Assembly (NCBI GenBank): GCA_030264375.1
Contig: JASCQW010000190.1
Location: 43,278,870 to 43,342,869, forward strand
DNA: 64,000 nt
DNA from: Carcharhinus longimanus
Lineage: Eukaryota
Reading direction: 5' to 3'
In this document: piece by piece, positions 47,079-64,000 of the stretch
How the letters are laid out: each line of letters opens with the position of its first letter
Numbering within the stretch: the stretch's first letter is position 1
Position numbers and translations under genes: made by a program
Notes under the pieces: generated by a model
The model's input: the letters and a program-made list of their open reading frames with translations, nothing else
Databases searched by the model: none
What the model was told of the DNA's origin: nothing

Positions 47079-47365
47079 TGTGTGTGTGTGAGTGGGGGTG
47101 TGTGTGTGTATGTAAGAGAGAGAGAGTGTGTATGTATGTGTGTGTGAACGAGTCTGTGTGACAGTGTGTGTGTATATCTGTGTGTGTGTGTGTGTGTGTG
47201 AGAGAGTGAGTATGTATATGAGAGTGAATGTGTGTATATGTGTGTGAGCGAGTCTGTGTGTGGAAGTGAGTCTGTGTATATGTGGGGGTCTGTGAGTGTG
47301 TACGTGTGCGCGCGAACGAGTCTATGTGTGAGTCTGAGTGTATACGTGTGTGTACACCCTGTGAG
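47079..47365. repeat. Degenerate (TG)n/(GA)n microsatellite
   Basis: Alternating TG tract of about 290 bp. Confidence 0.95.
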
Positions 47366-55035: not shown

Positions 55036-55120
55036 TGGTCCCATGCTGTAATAGTTAGCACTCTGGACTTTGAATCCAGCAATCCGAGTTCAAAACTCAG
55101 TGGGTCCACAACATGTTTTG

Positions 55121-55438: not shown

Positions 55439-56233
55439 AAATCCCAGCCACTGCTTTCTACCTTTGGCAAAAGGGTTGGCTAATATTATGCTTGACAAAA
55501 GTTGAAACGGATAGTCCTGGGGCTCTCCACAACTGCTTTCTCTGCCATTCCGTAACTTGTATGGCGGGCCAACATTTCTTTAATCTTGTTTCTTACATTT
55601 ATAGCTTGTAAGTAGCCTGACTAAACACTCAAAGTTGTTGCTCAACAGTGCAAGTCAGGTTCAATTGCTAGGACTCAAAACCACCTGGGTTGGAGATTCA
55701 TACTTGTCTGATCAACTGATACTTGTTCATTGGCACATTCATTGAATACAAAATGAGCCAGTTCATGTACTTCAACTGCTTGTACTAATGTTGACCTATA
55801 GGCGCTGCCAGGTGACACTGAAATGGACATTGTAACAGGGTAAAGTCAGGCTCTCAACTTCCAGGATACTCTGCAACCACAAACAATGCTCCAATCCATG
55901 CCACCTGTCCTAACAAGCAATGATAATAATGCAAATACAAACAAGGAATTCATTGTTAAGCTTACTAAAAAAAATGCAAGCTATTGAAAATATGACAAGA
56001 TTTTTAATAGCAATATTTGGTACCAACATAGTTGTACGTTTTCAAATCTTTCATTCACACAATGCGCAATCTTCGACTATCCCACCCTTGAACCAGCACT
56101 TGGGAACTTCTATGTTTCTTATTATCTGATAACCAGTTATCATTAAAAAAATGGTATCTTTGGGAGAATATTGTGTTCAAGATGATGGCATAACATCTGT
56201 ATGTGTGCAGAGGCCTGTGCCTGGGAGTAGAAC

Positions 56234-56885
56234 CTAGTTCATGACGACAGAACAGGAACTTTCAACATCTTTTGTAACAGCAGGGTTCTGATAGTAACTC
56301 TGTTGGAGCACATGAGAATTAAATGGTGCCTTTCCGGCATATTGATAATCATGTTTTTGGTCACAAGTTTGTGCCTGTCCAGGATTATGTCCAAGATCGT
56401 GGCTCTGCCCATGCTCAGGTGGGTGTCCAAGGTCATGGCTGTGCCCGTGTCCAGATGGGTGTCCAAGATCGTGGCTGTGCCCATGCCCAGATGGGTATCC
56501 CAGACCATGGCTGTGCCCATGTCCAGATGGGGGTCCAAGACCATGGCTGTGCTGCCCATGTCCAGGTGTGTGTCCAAGATCGTGGCTATGCCCATGTCCA
56601 GATGTGTGTCCAAGATCCTGGCCATGCCCGTGTCCAGATGTGTGCCCAACAAAATGGTTGTGTCCATGTTGTGATCTGTAACCGAGATCATGGTTGTGTC
56701 CAGGTCCAACATCATATTTAAGGTTTGGAGCGTATGCAAAACCATAATTGAAAGGTTGTTGATGACTGGGTCCAAACCAATGTACCTGTTCGTTTGCAAG
56801 CTGTGAATATTGGTAGTAATGGGAATCAGTGGCTGAAGGAAAGTAATATGTTTGAGTGGGATAGGACCCTGGTTTAGGATTGCAC
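56234..56885 (-). CDS. Terminal coding exon (216 aa) of an unidentified protein with a Tyr/Gln/Pro-rich segment and nine His/Gly-rich 12-aa tandem repeats
   Basis: Strong acceptor ttttttctctttattttag|G TGC AAT at 56885 (phase 2), open to TAG at 56234. Repeat units differ by many synonymous third-position changes in the His frame (CAC/CAT, CTT/CTG/CTC, GGA/GGG/GGT, GAT/GAC), and the only indel is 3 nt (CAG). Confidence 0.8.
56375..56701 (-). repeat. 36-bp coding minisatellite, 9 units, consensus GGGCACAGCCACGATCTTGGACACCCATCTGGACAT
   Basis: Direct periodicity of 36 nt (one 39-nt unit), translating to GHSHDLGHPSGH variants. Confidence 0.95.
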
Positions 56886-57819
56886 CTAAAATAAAGAGAA
56901 AAAAATGTTGAACTGCGGTATATACACATTTATCCAGCATGCATTGTCTGCAGATACGCAAGCCAACATCATGTTTAGTTTCGATGTGAAATTGTAGAAA
57001 ACAATATGAATCACAATGTCCAGGATCAATGCCAACAGGCTATTTAAAAAAACACATATTTCATTCGCAAGAAACCAATTCCTAATGTAACACTTTCCAT
57101 TCCAATCACACCAAGTATCCCATATATGGTTGGATGGTGCAGGAATGTTTGGCAACAGCTACCCCAGTGAAAATATATACAGGCAAGTCCGTCTGTGTTG
57201 TATAAACACTGAATAAATTGCTGGAGCTGTGCAAGGCAAACGACAAGCAGTCAGAAATCACATCAACCATTGTCCGAATAGTGAATGCACCCAAATTGAA
57301 TCCTTCAGACGCTTGTCAGATTCTGAAGCTGTTATTTTGCAATATGCGTTAAAAACCAGCAAGATTTTACAGTGATACAGTCCAAATATAACTTCCAAAA
57401 TTAACCCTGTGCTCCCTCTTTCTGGCATCTCCTTGACCTATAGGATGAAGCTTCAATATGTAAACTCGTGTTGCTCCCAGCAGATTCAATTATCATAGAA
57501 GCTTACGGTCACGATAGCATGCGATTAAAATGCACAATAAGTTCATGTCACTTGTATGGAAGAACATAAATCTGATTGAAGAAACTAATGTTCAGCTGTG
57601 AAGCTAATAAAACCATGGGAAAGTTACCAAAGACTGATTAATAAAGTCAGTAGATGCAACATTTAGAACCAGGAATGTTCCAGTTCCATGCTAAGTTAGC
57701 TGACCTCAGGTAGGTCAGAATGGAGCAATCATCTTTGGTTAGTGCTGAGAAAATTGGGCAGGCTCTGGCATTACAGGCTGGAATCGGACATGTAGGTAAT
57801 GAATGAGGGCCTGACTAGA

Positions 57820-58260
57820 ATATTGCTGAAAAGAGAGACACGTTTTTCATCTTGAACTCATCAGAATGTCAAATTTCAAAGGAGAATTACAGGAGAAAAC
57901 ACTGATTGGTTGGCAAGTCAGCTCTAATTGACTGAAACGTTGCAATGGAGAAAGGGCAACAAGAAAACACAGGCTCCCCAAGTTCCTGCTAATTCAAAAA
58001 TGGCACAATGCTTGAACATATTCCTTTTGTTTGCAAAGAACAGCGCACTATATGTGGATGTACATTGCTTCTCGCAAGTGTAGATAGATGACCCATGTTA
58101 TGAGCTTGACTAATTATCTTAAATTGGTTGTTAGGGTTGGTATTAGTGCCCTCAGGATTGCTTAGCAAGTGCTGCCCAATTACAGAATCACATCTAATAG
58201 TAGGAGTTTTGTTTTGGATTTTGTAAGTGTGGGTTGGTTGAGGATGGTTTGTAAACAACT
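57820..58260 (-). mobile_element. Penelope-like element 3' fragment (second family), with degenerate hammerhead at about 57840-57866
   Basis: GIY-YIG C-terminal remnant CDSVIGQHLLSNPE..NNQFKIISQAHN..HL; downstream CTGATGAG-TTCAAGAT-GAAA. Confidence 0.75.
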
Positions 58261-58615
58261 GAATAGCCTGTTAATGTGCACTGTATGCATGCAGCATAAC
58301 AAGTTAGCTAAGGTGCCTGTGAAACACAAAGTCAATATGTTCAGAAGAGATGATTTTTAATAATCCAAAAAAATCACGGAGTTAATCAACAAATTTTAGA
58401 AGTGCATTTTATTCTTATGGATGTTATTAAAATAAGTCAGTTAGAACGTTCTATATATAATTACCTAAGTTTATCACTTTTTCATGACATCTTCTGAATT
58501 CAAAATATGGCAAAGTTTATTAAACTGTTCTCCTCGATGGAACTGAGTGTTGGATCCTGAATTCCCAGTTTCAGCAGAATGTAATTCAGCTCCAAAAGGG
58601 GATGGGTGTAAGAGA

Positions 58616-58798
58616 GGGCAGAATTTTATTGCCCCCTTATGCCAGCGGGATTTCTGAGTGGCTCAGTGTGTTTTCTAACCAGGCGGTAAAATTTCGAAAA
58701 GTATCCCTCCATTTTACACAGCAAGTTGCTCCGCAGTCCATCGACTTTAGCAGGAATGGAAAATCCTGTCAGCATAAGGGACTGTAAAATTCCACCCC
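58616..58798. mobile_element. GGGC-TIR MITE
   Basis: gggcagaatttta...taaaattccaccc. Confidence 0.7.
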
Positions 58799-58887
58799 TG
58801 TAGGCTTGCCGCCAATTAGATGCAACAATGACACAATTGTTGTGTTCATGGCAAGGCCCACACGTTGGAAGAAGGGAACACGATACA

Positions 58888-59207
58888 GCATAGTGGCACA
58901 GTGGTTAGCACTGCTGCCTCACAGGGTCAGGGACCCAGGTTCAATTCTGGCCTTGGGTCACTGTCTGTGTGGAGTTTGGACATTTCCCCCATGTCTGTGT
59001 GGGGTTTCCTCCAGGTGCTCCAGTTTCCTCTCACAGTCCAAAGATGTGCGGGGTAGGTTGATTGGCCATGGTAAATTGCCCCTAGTATCAGGGGGATTAG
59101 AAGGGTGAACATGTGGGATTACAGGAGTAGGACCCTGGGTGGGATTGTGGTCGGTGAAGACTCAATGGGCCGAATGGCCTCTTTCTGCACTGTAGGGATT
59201 CTATGAT
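58888..59207 (+). mobile_element. HE1-type V-SINE
   Basis: Full copy. Confidence 0.9.
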
Positions 59208-59701
59208 TTTAGATCGGCAGAGCCCAAAAAATGAATTTTGAAATTGAATATTTGCAATTCAAAAAATGTATGAAACTCTAAAGTTCTATTGTTAAAAATT
59301 GGGTAGGAGTTGGTGCTCTAGTTTTTGGAGTTCATTTTAACAGGACTGCTGGGGGAAATGGGGTATGGGAGGGGGAATAATGGCGGGGTGCTGAGTTGGA
59401 GGTTGACTGTCATTTAGATTTAGAATTTACGTTTACTCACCCAGTTGTCTAGCAAGTTTAAACAGTGACTGGGTGAGCTACAGGGACCTAAGTGATCATT
59501 CCCCAGTGAGCCCTGCTGGAGAGCGACGCGGATAATTGATCATGCTGTGATTGGACTTTGCTGTGACCTCCAGGTAAGCACATCGATCCCCACTGTCAAG
59601 ATTCACAGAACAGTGACTGTGTGGAAGAGGTACACATAAGCAGATGTGGAGCTGGAATTCAGTAAGAAACACTTGAGATGAGAAGAAGAGACAGAAAACT
59701 G

Positions 59702-59992
59702 TTTAAAGTTTATTTATTAGTGTCACAAGTAGGCTTACATTGACACTGCAATGAAGTTACTGGGAAAATTCCCTAGTCACCCCACTCTGGTGTGTGTTCA
59801 GGTACACAGAGGGAGAATTTAGCATGTCCAATGCATTTAACCAGCATGTCTTTTAGACTTTTGGAAGGAAACTGGAGAACCAGGAGGAAACCCATGCAGC
59901 CATGGGAAGGACATGGAGACTCCGCACAGACAGTGACCCAAGCCAGGAGTTGAACCCAGATCCCTAGCACTGTGAGGCAGCAGTGCTAACCA
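59702..59992 (-). mobile_element. V-SINE, alternative tail
   Basis: Near-full copy. Confidence 0.85.
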
Positions 59993-60039
59993 GTATCTCC
60001 CTGCGACGCTACTACATAGTTACATCGAGGAGATATGGA

Positions 60040-60425
60040 TTCCCTTGAGTATAAAGAGTGTTCTAATTGATAAAGAGTGTTCTAATTGTGTTGTTTAAAA
60101 GAATTAAAGAAATTGAGAGGGTTGAAACTATTTCCTTTGATGGGGACATCCGTAGTGAGGGCAGAACCTTAAAGTCAGAGCTTGGCCACTCAGGGATAAT
60201 GTCAGGAAGTACATCTTCACGCAAAGTGTCGTGGGAATCAGAACGCGCTCCAAAAACAGTGAGGCGTGATCAGTTGATAATTTCAGAACTGAGATTGACA
60301 GGTTTTTATCAGGTAAGTGTAGCAAGGGATTTGTATCAAAGGTGGCTTTGAGGTAAGCCTCAGCCTTGAGCTAAATAAATGATGGAATATGCTCGAGGGG
60401 CTGAACAGCCTACTCCTGTTCCTGT
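60040..60425 (+). mobile_element. Old CR1 3' fragment
   Basis: Decayed ORF2 C-terminus and tail gctcgaggggctgaacagcctactcctgttcct. Confidence 0.65.
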
Positions 60426-61609
60426 ATCCCTGAAGTAGATGATACAAACGTGAGGACAGTCATGAAGGAGATATATTCCTACAAGCTCTAAAAGGAAAGC
60501 TTGGATAGAGACAAAGAAACATCGAACGAATATCTCCTGGTGCTCCGCACTGATTCCAGAGCCTTCAGGCCAATCCAGATTGAAACTGGTTTTAACAGAG
60601 ATAATTGGAGGATTGGGAGTTTGCAAATATTTAAATTGATCAGAGGAAAGTAACTGCAGTTTTTTTCACCTCAAAACAAGAAGCCTGGCCCATGTCAGTT
60701 GATAAGTTGATAAAACAGAGACAATTTCCATCACAGGTGCCACAGGGAATTGGTGCTGTGAAACTGTGCTGAGGAGGAAATGATTTGATGCTAATTCTGT
60801 CAAAGTAGACTCAGTAGATTACATTTACAGTGCATCTGTCACACACAGTTAGAACGTCCCTGGCAGTAAACAGTTGTGACAGAAGATCTGTCAGAATCAA
60901 AGTTCCAGAGCGGACACTGGCAGCAGAGGACAAAATAAACTGTAAGTAGATTTGGGAAATCGGAGGAGCGGCTTGCAGATTTGACAGCCAGATCAATGAG
61001 ACGTATCCTCGTGATTGCCAGGTGTGCCAGCCAGCAACTCCCCATCACTACCTTGTGTTTAAATAAAAGACAAGAAAGACACTTCCACTGTCAGCTCTAG
61101 GCAGCGAAACAGAAACTTCGCAGCTGGCTCAGTCTTCCCTCAGCGATCTCTGTCACAGCTGGAACAATGTTAGTCAAAATGGGGAATGTGAATCAGTCAG
61201 TAATTTCAGGTAATGGCTCAGGCTGATTGTTATCAGTCAGCCCCTCCAAGCACTGTATGGAAACACCTGACTTTCATACACAGTGCATCGTCTATAAAGC
61301 AGATGTGACCATTATCATCAAAACCATCAATTTTCATTGCACACAGTCTTCAGTGTGAAACTAGGATTTATGAGGCAAGATACAGCAACCACAATGAAGT
61401 GCAAACATCTTTAACTTCGAAGAAAAATTAAAGAACTTGAGCGTGATTGTTTTAAACATTTATAAACTCCCTGGAAAAACATAATCTTGCAAACCTTGTT
61501 GGAAACAAATCTGTTGCCTTTCAGGAAAAGATATCTGGGAATGGTAGAAACTATATATTCTAGATTGATAAATTGATTCCAATTCATTCCTTCAGAAATG
61601 TGACTGAGA

Positions 61610-62125
61610 AAAAACCTTTTCACACATTGGGTTCAGGATCTGCAATGCTCCGCCTGGCAGTGTGATGGAGGCAGTTCTTCAAGAGGGCATTAGATGATTA
61701 CTTGAATAGAAACAAAGTGCAGGCATGTGGGGAAAAGGCAGGGGATTGGCAATGAATCATGATGTTCATTTAGAGAGTTGGTGCAGACACAATGAGCCAA
61801 TTGGTCTCCTTCTGCACTGTAACCATTCATCATACATCATAGAATCCCCACAGTGCAGAAAGAGGCCATTTGGCCCATCAAGTCTGCACTGACAACAATC
61901 CCACTCAGGCCCTATCCCCGTAACCCTGCGTATTTAGGCTGCTAACCTCCCTGCCACAAAATGAAAATTTATCATGGCCAATCAATCTAACCCATACATC
62001 TCTGGACTGTGGGGGGAAACCAGAGGGAACTCATGCAGACACAGGGAAAACATGCAAACTCCACATAGATAGTCACCCAAGACTGGAATTGAACCCGGGT
62101 CCCTGGTGCTGTGCTGCTGTGCCAC
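61610..62125. mobile_element. HER1/CR1 3' end (+, 61610-61830) abutting an HE1 SINE (-, 61838-62125) tail-to-tail
   Basis: Both end in the shared tail CCTTCTGCACTGT. Confidence 0.8.
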
Positions 62126-62210
62126 CTCCATAAAGAAATATAATTTTTTATTGATTAAAATAATTTAATTTCCACACTCCAGAGGTACAGAAAGGTAAGG
62201 GGGTAACTAC

Positions 62211-62324
62211 CTTAATGAGATACAGAAATGGTACAGAAAATGGATGGAGATCCTTGCGACTGCATTGCAGTAAGGCACGCGAGTAGATTGCGAATCCACT
62301 CCCTCTGAGAGCTCTCCTTGGTTA
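62211..62324 (-). CDS. Candidate upstream internal exon (114 nt, phase 2-2) of the His-repeat gene
   Basis: Branch-like gctaac plus actcatttacag acceptor and AAG|gtagtt donor. The only fully open frame (NQGELSEGVDSQSTRVPYCNAVARISIHFLYHFCISL) is phase-compatible with the 56885 acceptor. No recognisable domain. Confidence 0.3.
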
Positions 62325-63304
62325 CTGTAAATGAGTGTTAGCAACCAAAGTGGTGTTTGACAACTGCAGCTAAACTTTACTGCACCATTTTTTTCCTCCA
62401 GCATCCAATACATTTTAAAGGTTTCTACATAAAGTGCAAGTGTCTCTAATAATGTAATAATGTCAATGTGTCAGGAAATGCTATTCAATCCATTTTATCT
62501 TGTTGCCTGCTATCCATTCAACAAATAATCTAAAACGTTTGGGTAAATTGGATCTGCTAAAACTGATGTGGATTCTATTTCCGTTCAAGAATCTGCTCAG
62601 AAAATGAAATCTTCTGGCATTTTATCCATTGTCAAAGGAGAAATGTAAAAGGCACCTTCCTAAGATTAGAAATACATCCACTACCTCCAACAAAAGCATT
62701 TAGATGAGCACTTGAAATGCCAAAGCATACAAGACTATGGACCAAGTGCTGGAAAGTGGGATTAGATTAGAATAGCTTGATGGTTGGTACAGACATGATG
62801 GGCCAAAGGGCTTATTTTTGTGCTGTAAAACTCTATGGCTCTGTAACACCCAACCCTCGCTACAATAAACCAGAAAGCACTAGAGTCTACTGTACCTATA
62901 CCAGCAGTAACAAAGCAAGAACTTAGCTCCAGATACCATTCTATGTACAGACTTTAATTACTAATGATTTCATAAGCTGACATTTTTTCCCACTTTTAGT
63001 CATTTAGTTTTGGATATTATTCCTTGGCCTATTATTAATAATAATTTGCATAGAGCATATAAAAATAGCCCAACAGCCTTCACAGAAGCAGAATAAGAAG
63101 TATAAACCAAAGAAGGGAGATCATAAAGGAGGAGACAAAAGGTTTTGTCAAAGGTGAGCTTCAAGGGGAAAAGCGATAAGACTTGCATTTAAATAGCAGC
63201 TTTCACAACCTCAGGACATCCCAAGGCACTTTCCAGTCAATGAAGTACTTCTGCAGGGTCGTCACTTTGATAAAGTGGCAGCCAGTCTGAACCTTCAGAA
63301 CTTG

Positions 63305-63660
63305 TAGGGATGAGGAGCAGGATTTGGTGTTGACATCAAGATGGAAGTGGCAGAAATGGAGGAAGATGATGTTTTGAATATAGGTGTCAGCCACCCACTG
63401 ACACCTATATTCAAAACATCANNNNNNNNNNNNNNNNNNNNNNNNNNNNNNNNNNNNNNNNNNNNNNNNNNNNNNNNNNNNNNNNNNNNNNNNNNNNNNN
63501 NNNNNNNNNNNNNNNNNNNNNTGCTCCTCATCCCTATCCCTCTCAGCATTCCAAAAAGGATCATTCCTCAATCCCAAAACCTCCTCCCCTTTTCACAGCA
63601 CCTTTCCATGCAAATGCAGGAGGTGCAATACCCACCCTCTACCTTCACTCCTGTCAGCCT
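63305..63660 (+). mobile_element. Penelope-like ORF fragment with fold-back inversion
   Basis: Reconstructed frame PTDTYIQNIIFLHFCHFHLDVNTKSCSSSLSLSAFQ and remnant HSTFPCKCRRCNT; arms 63305-63390 and 63398-63536 (partly gap). Confidence 0.65.
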
Positions 63661-63749
63661 ACAAGGCTCCAGCTACTCGGTGTATGTAGCCGCACACCTC
63701 AGTGTGAAAATCCATTAGTACAACATCTCCTGAAGCCTTTGTTTGTTCA

Positions 63750-64000
63750 CAGCAGTGGAGTAGTGCTATCGGAGATTCAAGATAATGCACTGGGGACCCA
63801 CGTTTGAATCCCACCACAGCAGCTAGTGAAATTTAAATTGGAATTTTGGAATTAGAAGTCTAATGATGACCATGAAACCACTGTGAAAAAAAAAACCATC
63901 AGGTTCACTTTGGGAAGGAAATCTGCCATTCTTACCTGGTCTGGCCTATAGTGACTCCGGACCCACAGCTAAATGGTTAACTCTTAAATGCCCTGTGAAA
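63750..64000 (+). mobile_element. tRNA-headed SINE (20759 family), cut by the window end
   Basis: gtttgaatcccacc..gatgaccatgaaacca..gggaaggaaatctgcc. Confidence 0.8.

Follow-up and report, generated by a model that had tools for sequence, protein, structure and literature searches.

Results

The locus and its terminal exon

The window analysed is a stretch of 64,000 nucleotides from Carcharhinus longimanus, and the features found in it are collected in Table 1. A coding exon on the minus strand ends with the stop codon at 56234-56236 and encodes 216 amino acids in the frame carrying its histidines, here called the His frame. Its acceptor scored 12.5 with an approximate matrix of our own making and ranked 1 out of 4118 among the minus-strand AG sites of the window. 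Arg stands directly before C/Y-x-P-K/R-P-G at the exon start in all 12 protein matches, and since the orthologues read R/CNPKPG or a near variant at the junction, the intron is in phase 2. The spliced terminal exon and phase-2 intron proposed in the initial annotation are supported by the acceptor and by the orthologous junctions. The motif NPxPGSYPxQ follows the junction in the window exon, and conservation in its P-x-P-G-S-Y-P-x-Q columns reaches 90% or more across an alignment of 25 rows; a human RHBDD2 peptide reported in PMC8140740 starts with LNPVPGSYPTQ.

Table 1. Positions of the rhbdd2 features in the 64,000-nucleotide window
Feature	Position	Strand	Details
Terminal rhbdd2 exon, coding part	56234..56885	-	1 nt + 216 codons + TAG; C-terminal tail
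Polypyrimidine tract and AG acceptor of the last rhbdd2 intron	56886..56910	-	Phase 2, AG/G = Arg
Exon-opening motif CNPKPGSYPTQTYY, conserved in jawed-vertebrate RHBDD2	56843..56884	-	Alignment
Nine 36-bp / 12-aa units, consensus GHSHDLGHTSGH	56375..56701	-	13 HxH, all with small x
One inserted codon, Gln 111, within the array	56552..56554	-	Unit alignment
C-terminal end ESSCSVVMN	56237..56263	-	Kept as S-C/F-S-V-V/L-M/V in elasmobranchs
Candidate polyadenylation signal ATTAAA	56003..56008	-	226 nt past the stop
Intron; rhomboid-domain exons beyond the window end	56886..64000	-	tblastn, splice-site scan

Searching the window by tblastn with 12 full-length orthologues gave the terminal exon as the sole match, so the rhomboid exons lie beyond position 64000. 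No strong open exon between an acceptor and a donor was detected by the splice-site scan of the window upstream of the exon, and the intron holds a 100-N gap at 63422-63521. Downstream, a second candidate polyadenylation signal is found at 55584 (minus strand). The RHBDD2 of Heptranchias has the C-terminal motif but continues beyond the stop position, with Gln replacing the stop found in the window. The 19 codons that follow the stop in the window (56177-56236, minus strand; VLLPGTGLCTHTDVMPSS and then a further stop) are similar to the Heptranchias extension (QVLPPGPLLAQAAAQHGGAVPSS), and judging from the two sequences one of these states is the product of a single gain or loss of a stop.

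Pfam gave no match for 44 selected open reading frames and candidate exons across the window, and no neighbouring gene was identified. No gene was found at 1-55000, where many open reading frames contain SINE- or LINE-like text; the window has ten N gaps and a TG-rich microsatellite at 47079-47301. An Rfam tRNA match of 45 bits (55037-55108, plus strand) lies about 1.1 kb past the stop and adjoins a SINE-like repeat, and may be the head of a tRNA-derived SINE.

The exon belongs to RHBDD2

By homology the exon almost certainly belongs to RHBDD2, also called RHBDL7, a vertebrate inactive rhomboid pseudoprotease. When longer proteins were searched, 12 out of 12 protein matches of the exon carried the rhomboid domain PF01694 (E 1e-64 to 2e-21). 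Eleven of them, from sharks and rays, were named rhbdd2 or RHBDD2 and one was without a name, and the best matches are RHBDD2 along the entire exon. The closest record found was Mustelus asterias RHBDD2 (XP_078081268.1), which shares the exon junction and the opening motif; its isoform X1 is 89% identical over the exon, with 54/60 and 42/45 identical residues in the two flanks of the repeat, and Pfam recognises Rhomboid in full-length X1 at E 3e-20. The exon tail is without a Pfam match of its own. Eight frames near the exon gave just two weak sub-threshold Pfam matches, and the exon by itself, compared with PDB sequences, found a single match, with E 7.2.

The protein had initially been left unassigned, with a loose resemblance to the RHBDD1 tail; the rhomboid superfamily was right, the paralogue was not. 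The His frame had been taken as the coding frame, and the orthologous RHBDD2 proteins do align along the exon in it.

Active rhomboid proteases have a Ser-His dyad, with GxSG in TM4 and His in TM6. This dyad is absent here: all 16 full-length elasmobranch proteins have QGFT in TM4, and the 15 in which the pattern could be located in TM6 have GN(V/I)(C/S)G there, with Asn at the dyad position. A recent preprint likewise describes RHBDD2 as lacking the catalytic Ser; it places the protein at the Golgi, reports that, when p97 is inhibited, it is bound to misfolded Golgi proteins that carry ubiquitin, and finds Golgi compactness altered by overexpression of human RHBDD2 (10.64898/2026.02.04.703791).

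The repeat array in the window

The array occupies amino acids 62-170 of the exon, and its nine 12-mer units with 30 His and 28 Gly in 109 residues reproduce the counts made initially, as does its single indel of one codon, an in-frame insertion of Gln at amino acid 111. Tandem Repeats Finder gave a period of 36 bp, 8.8 copies and 79% matches, and the self-identity of the window tail at lag 12 reached z = 20.8 against shuffles. The tail is rich in Gly, His, Tyr and Gln, the array has four exact copies of GHGHSH, and the regular spacing of its units is GxGxxxxLG. The middle residue is small in 13/13 HxH of the window tail (shuffle mean 2.0, p = 0.001), although small x is weak evidence because both transitions of AGC at codon positions 1-2 would yield small residues.

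Other reading frames and isoforms

The minus strand has a further frame without a stop along the entire exon (ORF 56239-57039), not remarked on in the initial annotation. As the main product this frame, reading LDTHLDMG..., was rejected: 5/30 of its unit variants are synonymous, with no enrichment, and it occurs in the Mustelus X2 and X3 models alone. In X2 the frame switches within the repeat, and X3 joins the exon at the identical base, but in the other frame, while X1 keeps the His frame intact. The X1 and X3 frames can be read from a single DNA sequence at each of the 203 codons; X1 being intact and the two mutually consistent, the gene is not broken in Mustelus, and the apparent frameshift is a matter of isoform models and not of gene damage. 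The antisense frame was likewise rejected as a second gene. Its 15/30 synonymous variants are on par with the His frame, as expected because third positions are shared. On the plus strand all three frames are open across the array (56231-56721), one of them reading a Cys-Pro repeat. The extra open frames probably follow from the sequence of the unit itself.

Gene models of Pristiophorus, Pristis, Mustelus and Callorhinchus include a short RHBDD2 isoform that has no tail and ends in R-WFARWD, R-WFDRWE or R-WFRMWE; such an ending is not present in the window. That the chimaera and elasmobranch models end alike hints that read-through into the last intron may be conserved and would give tail-on and tail-off forms.

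Distribution of the array across vertebrates

The comparison covered 26 tails: that of the window, those of 16 named elasmobranch species and of 8 named bony vertebrates, and that of Callorhinchus milii. The comparison left out an unnamed match (array present), Pristiophorus (short isoform only), Apteryx (isoform without the tail motif), Psilopogon (partial) and duplicate isoforms; from the wider orthologue search 10 of 150 matches were examined. A period of 12 residues was the best lag and significant in 17/17 elasmobranch tails (z 4.1-20.8), and was found in 0/9 of the others, the chimaera included, among which Rhinatrema gave p = 0.033 at lag 16. Elasmobranch RHBDD2 tails have 153-216 residues and 16-35 His, whereas those of bony vertebrates and the chimaera have 92-165 residues and 6-13 His. 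When units were counted at 6/12 identity, the window had 9, the most of the 17, Mustelus 8, the other elasmobranchs 3-6 and Callorhinchus 0. The units are degenerate in rays and bamboo sharks, and bamboo sharks are without many of the third histidines.

Beyond the opening motif the tail aligns poorly across vertebrates. A lone GHGHSH-like copy, a possible seed, is found in Polyodon, Nanorana and Synaphobranchus. HxH with small x is not found in the tails of Callorhinchus, Caretta and Polypterus, so RHBDD2 can do without the motif.

The initial suggestion of an elasmobranch-specific repeat expansion agrees with this distribution and is very probably correct as far as the compared tails go. The simplest history would be that an old, His-bearing seed was amplified in the ancestor of sharks and rays and that units have been gained and lost since. 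With one chimaera in the comparison, loss of the array in chimaeras may be an alternative history.

In the orectolobiforms Stegostoma and Chiloscyllium a poly-His/poly-Gln run is also seen at the N-terminus of RHBDD2. The C-terminal array of bamboo sharks is among the most degenerate.

Selection on the repeat

The evidence for selection on the array is mixed. Against the consensus the units hold 30 distinct variants, 13 of them synonymous, where 22-27% is expected (P = 0.008-0.036); three of the 13 are in CpG context. The units had initially been described as diverging largely at synonymous sites, which overstates the case with 17/30 variants non-synonymous, while the enrichment of synonymous variants over expectation holds. 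The pN/pS was 0.41 over the nine units and 0.48 over units 3-9 (P = 0.04-0.11). Seven units, of uncertain orthology, were aligned between the window and Mustelus and differ by 4 synonymous and 14 non-synonymous changes. The comparison of dN/dS between orthologues that had been proposed as a check gave 0.98 in the units and 0.44 in the flanks against Mustelus, both from small counts and neither significantly different from 1. Frameshifts or stops in orthologous repeats had also been named as a possible objection; in each of the 17 elasmobranch tails the reading frame is kept through the array and the C-terminal S-C/F-S-V motif.

Retention of the histidines was compared in units defined by their non-His columns only. 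The three His of HxHxH were retained above the lone His of the unit in 16/17 tails, with one tie, and were kept in 48, 56 and 50 of 65 distinct units against 25/65 for the lone His, a control which presumes an ancestral His in that column and is drawn from related, non-independent units. At column 11 of the orthologous units, Cys replaces the lone His in 12 of the 65 distinct units and Tyr does so in 10; the change from His to Cys requires two base changes and preserves a metal ligand.

Fold and topology

In the six-helix rhomboid fold both termini should lie on the cytosolic side. A structure model of Mustelus X1, made from the 25-row alignment (mean pLDDT 56.4, pTM 0.50), has six long helices within residues 31-208, and residues 263-457 are at pLDDT<50. 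An earlier model with a frame-shifted isoform as top row and a shallow alignment (pLDDT 38.8) was set aside. The best 25 PDB structure matches of the X1 model at E<=0.001 were all GlpG rhomboids, with a TM-score to the target of about 0.65. The hydropathy scan recognised four segments only, and in the tail there was no hydrophobic segment (maximum KD -0.09). Since simple hydropathy gives four segments, the six-helix topology rests on our model and on that of the preprint, which also has six helices (10.64898/2026.02.04.703791), and from it we infer the cytosolic side. With this model the RHBDD2 tail is likely to be disordered and cytosolic.

Histidine methylation and metal binding

The hexapeptide GHGHSH occurs exactly in peptides of SLC30A1, SLC30A5 and SLC30A7 that METTL9 methylates in vitro (PMC13027442). 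According to the same source, His methylation lowers Zn binding, HxH is necessary and not sufficient for METTL9, acidic or aliphatic flanks are disfavoured, with Asp or Leu after the last His being poor, and the enzyme also acts on lumen-facing regions of ZIP7. The number of HxH is there described as lineage-variable in NDUFB3 and S100A9. The His loop of ZnT7 is cytosolic and flexible and adds about 2 Zn (10.1101/2022.03.23.485435). The window tail has the features of a METTL9 substrate motif, namely HxH with small x in a disordered region, which are necessary and not sufficient.

Human RHBDD2 is listed as His-methylated in cells (PMC13027442 Table 2), with METTL9 named there as putative enzyme only. 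The sites H260, H262 and H267 come from one peptide, which begins at the NPxPGSYPTQ motif, in at least 10 rows (PMC8140740 Table S1), with site probabilities of 0.50-0.89 in five cell lines and one fractionated sample, and as these probabilities repeat identically between cell lines the rows are not independent. The human methylated HxH directly follows PTQ, where sharks are without His, so this site is not positionally equivalent to the array.

Discussion

A tentative model of the array

By homology and modelling, the exon encodes the disordered C-terminal tail of the six-helix rhomboid pseudoprotease RHBDD2. Comparison of the tails indicates that a 36-bp stretch with a His-Gly-His-Ser-His seed was tandemly amplified in the shark-ray ancestor, after the chimaera split, and that copy number was still changing afterwards, giving 3-9 units. 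The tail most likely faces the cytosol at the Golgi, presenting in each unit an HxHxH triad that resembles the cytosolic His loops of ZnT1/5/7. The array may then bind Zn2+ (or Cu/Ni) weakly and multivalently, methylation by METTL9 would reduce this binding, and binding tuned by methylation could adjust the clustering of RHBDD2 or its recruitment of partners in Golgi protein quality control. Metal binding, which the initial annotation suggested, is plausible, and that the array binds Zn in vitro is predicted with good confidence. An amplified cytosolic, zinc-binding and methylation-tunable HxH array is the leading reading, though a tentative one at slightly worse than even chances, and a selected physiological role in metal binding or methylation likewise falls a little short of evens. 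A broader proposal, in which the RHBDD2 tail is a Zn/His-methylation switch on Golgi quality control throughout jawed vertebrates, is unlikely, as is its corollary that the human protein has a minimal version (methylated H260/H262) and sharks and rays an amplified one.

Alternative explanations

The main rival is a near-neutral coding minisatellite, in which a 36-bp unit slips or crosses over unequally within a tolerant disordered tail, the frame and the two flanking motifs alone are selected, and the many His come along incidentally with the seed. The dN/dS of 0.98 in the units, the 17/30 non-synonymous unit variants, the 3-9 copies with degenerate units in rays and bamboo sharks, the poor alignment of the tail after the opening motif and the tail-less isoform models in four chondrichthyans all fit this explanation. 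It accords less well with an array kept in 17/17 shark and ray tails, with HxHxH histidines that outlast the lone His in 16/17, and with the enrichment of synonymous variants among the units (P = 0.008-0.036), and it is a real possibility, if a less probable one than the zinc-binding array. The tail may instead be a low-complexity sticker/spacer region, self-associating or binding partners at the Golgi surface in a pH- or metal-dependent manner and shaping the Golgi over any regulation by zinc. Its disorder and its Gly/His/Tyr/Gln-rich composition would suit such a role, but at cytosolic pH His is mostly uncharged. The shift of Golgi compactness upon RHBDD2 overexpression (10.64898/2026.02.04.703791) points the same way, yet comes from the human protein, which is without the array, and the sticker/spacer explanation is improbable.

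Three further explanations have still lower probability. With an odd number of helices the tail would be luminal and its histidines a Golgi sensor of pH or zinc. The four clear segments by hydropathy alone leave some room for this, but the six helices and GlpG-like fold of the model, the six helices of the preprint model and the lack of a hydrophobic segment in the tail make a luminal tail quite improbable; as METTL9 acts on lumen-facing ZIP7 (PMC13027442), methylation does not settle topology. The Gly-His repeats could also be degenerate SHP boxes recruiting p97 in the manner of a derlin tail, since Derlin-1 binds p97 by means of an SHP box at its C-terminus in which two Gly are invariant (PMC5042407), RHBDD2 is involved in the p97 pathway (10.64898/2026.02.04.703791) and a single GxGxxLG is present in 8/17 elasmobranch tails. 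Neither SHP boxes nor PPxY motifs were detected in the elasmobranch tails. The SHP pattern [FW]x(0-1)GxGxxL occurs in 0/26 tails, the key aromatics being absent and the spacing being GxGxxxxLG, and degenerate boxes are accordingly very unlikely. The Ufd1 box in PMC5042407 is consistent with this pattern. A stand-alone or secreted antimicrobial or structural His-rich protein of a new class was suggested by the initial annotation, with kininogen domain 5, histidine-rich glycoprotein (HRG) and squid beak proteins as models, and the His/Gly regions of HRG and kininogen are indeed similar in composition. This suggestion is abandoned, with next to no probability left to it: all 12 matches are rhomboid-domain proteins, no match at E<=0.001 was found among 4469 candidate proteins of 118-378 amino acids, the first Met of the His frame is the second-last residue of the exon, and the full-length orthologues carry the rhomboid domain alone, without a cystatin domain. 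The exon encodes the C-terminal tail of a pseudoprotease that spans the membrane several times.

Novelty and significance

Public NCBI gene models already include the array for 16 shark and ray species, so the sequence itself is not new. Among the papers listed from the literature searched, which lies mostly outside subscription journals, none described a His repeat for the shark protein or for a rhomboid pseudoprotease. The array is a real feature of a known gene and apparently an undescribed, lineage-specific variant. RHBDD2 is poorly characterised, its link to Golgi quality control is recent (10.64898/2026.02.04.703791), and it gets passing mention in two rhomboid reviews (PMC12615303; PMC12476590), which describe regulatory modules (UIM, UBA, SHP) in the tails of related proteins. 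A lineage that has multiplied one tail motif suggests a possible role for that motif, and offers a reagent with strong signal for zinc or METTL9 control. If the switch proposal were true, RHBDD2 would be the first rhomboid pseudoprotease with a metal-sensing tail, and the shark array a natural tool for exposing it. If it reflects mere drift, a known gene has simply acquired an ordinary coding minisatellite, and the array is of little significance.

Comparison with known systems

HRG and domain 5 of HMW kininogen have tandem His/Gly motifs, as the array does, but they are secreted plasma proteins of cystatin fold and the shark array is the tail of a membrane protein. The METTL9 substrates NDUFB3 and cow and horse S100A9 likewise have a lineage-variable HxH count in a disordered terminal region, while methylation of the shark array is putative and its last His is followed by Asp or Leu. 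The His loops of ZnT1/SLC30A1, ZnT5/SLC30A5 and ZnT7/SLC30A7 (and ZIP7) share GHGHSH, flexibility and a place in a membrane protein of the secretory pathway. The shark array is not homologous to these loops, is without a transporter domain and is a regular 12-mer in a C-terminal tail; the identity is one of motif. If the inference from these loops holds, the array would be a case of an RHBDD2 member acting like a ZnT/ZIP His loop while being unrelated to one.
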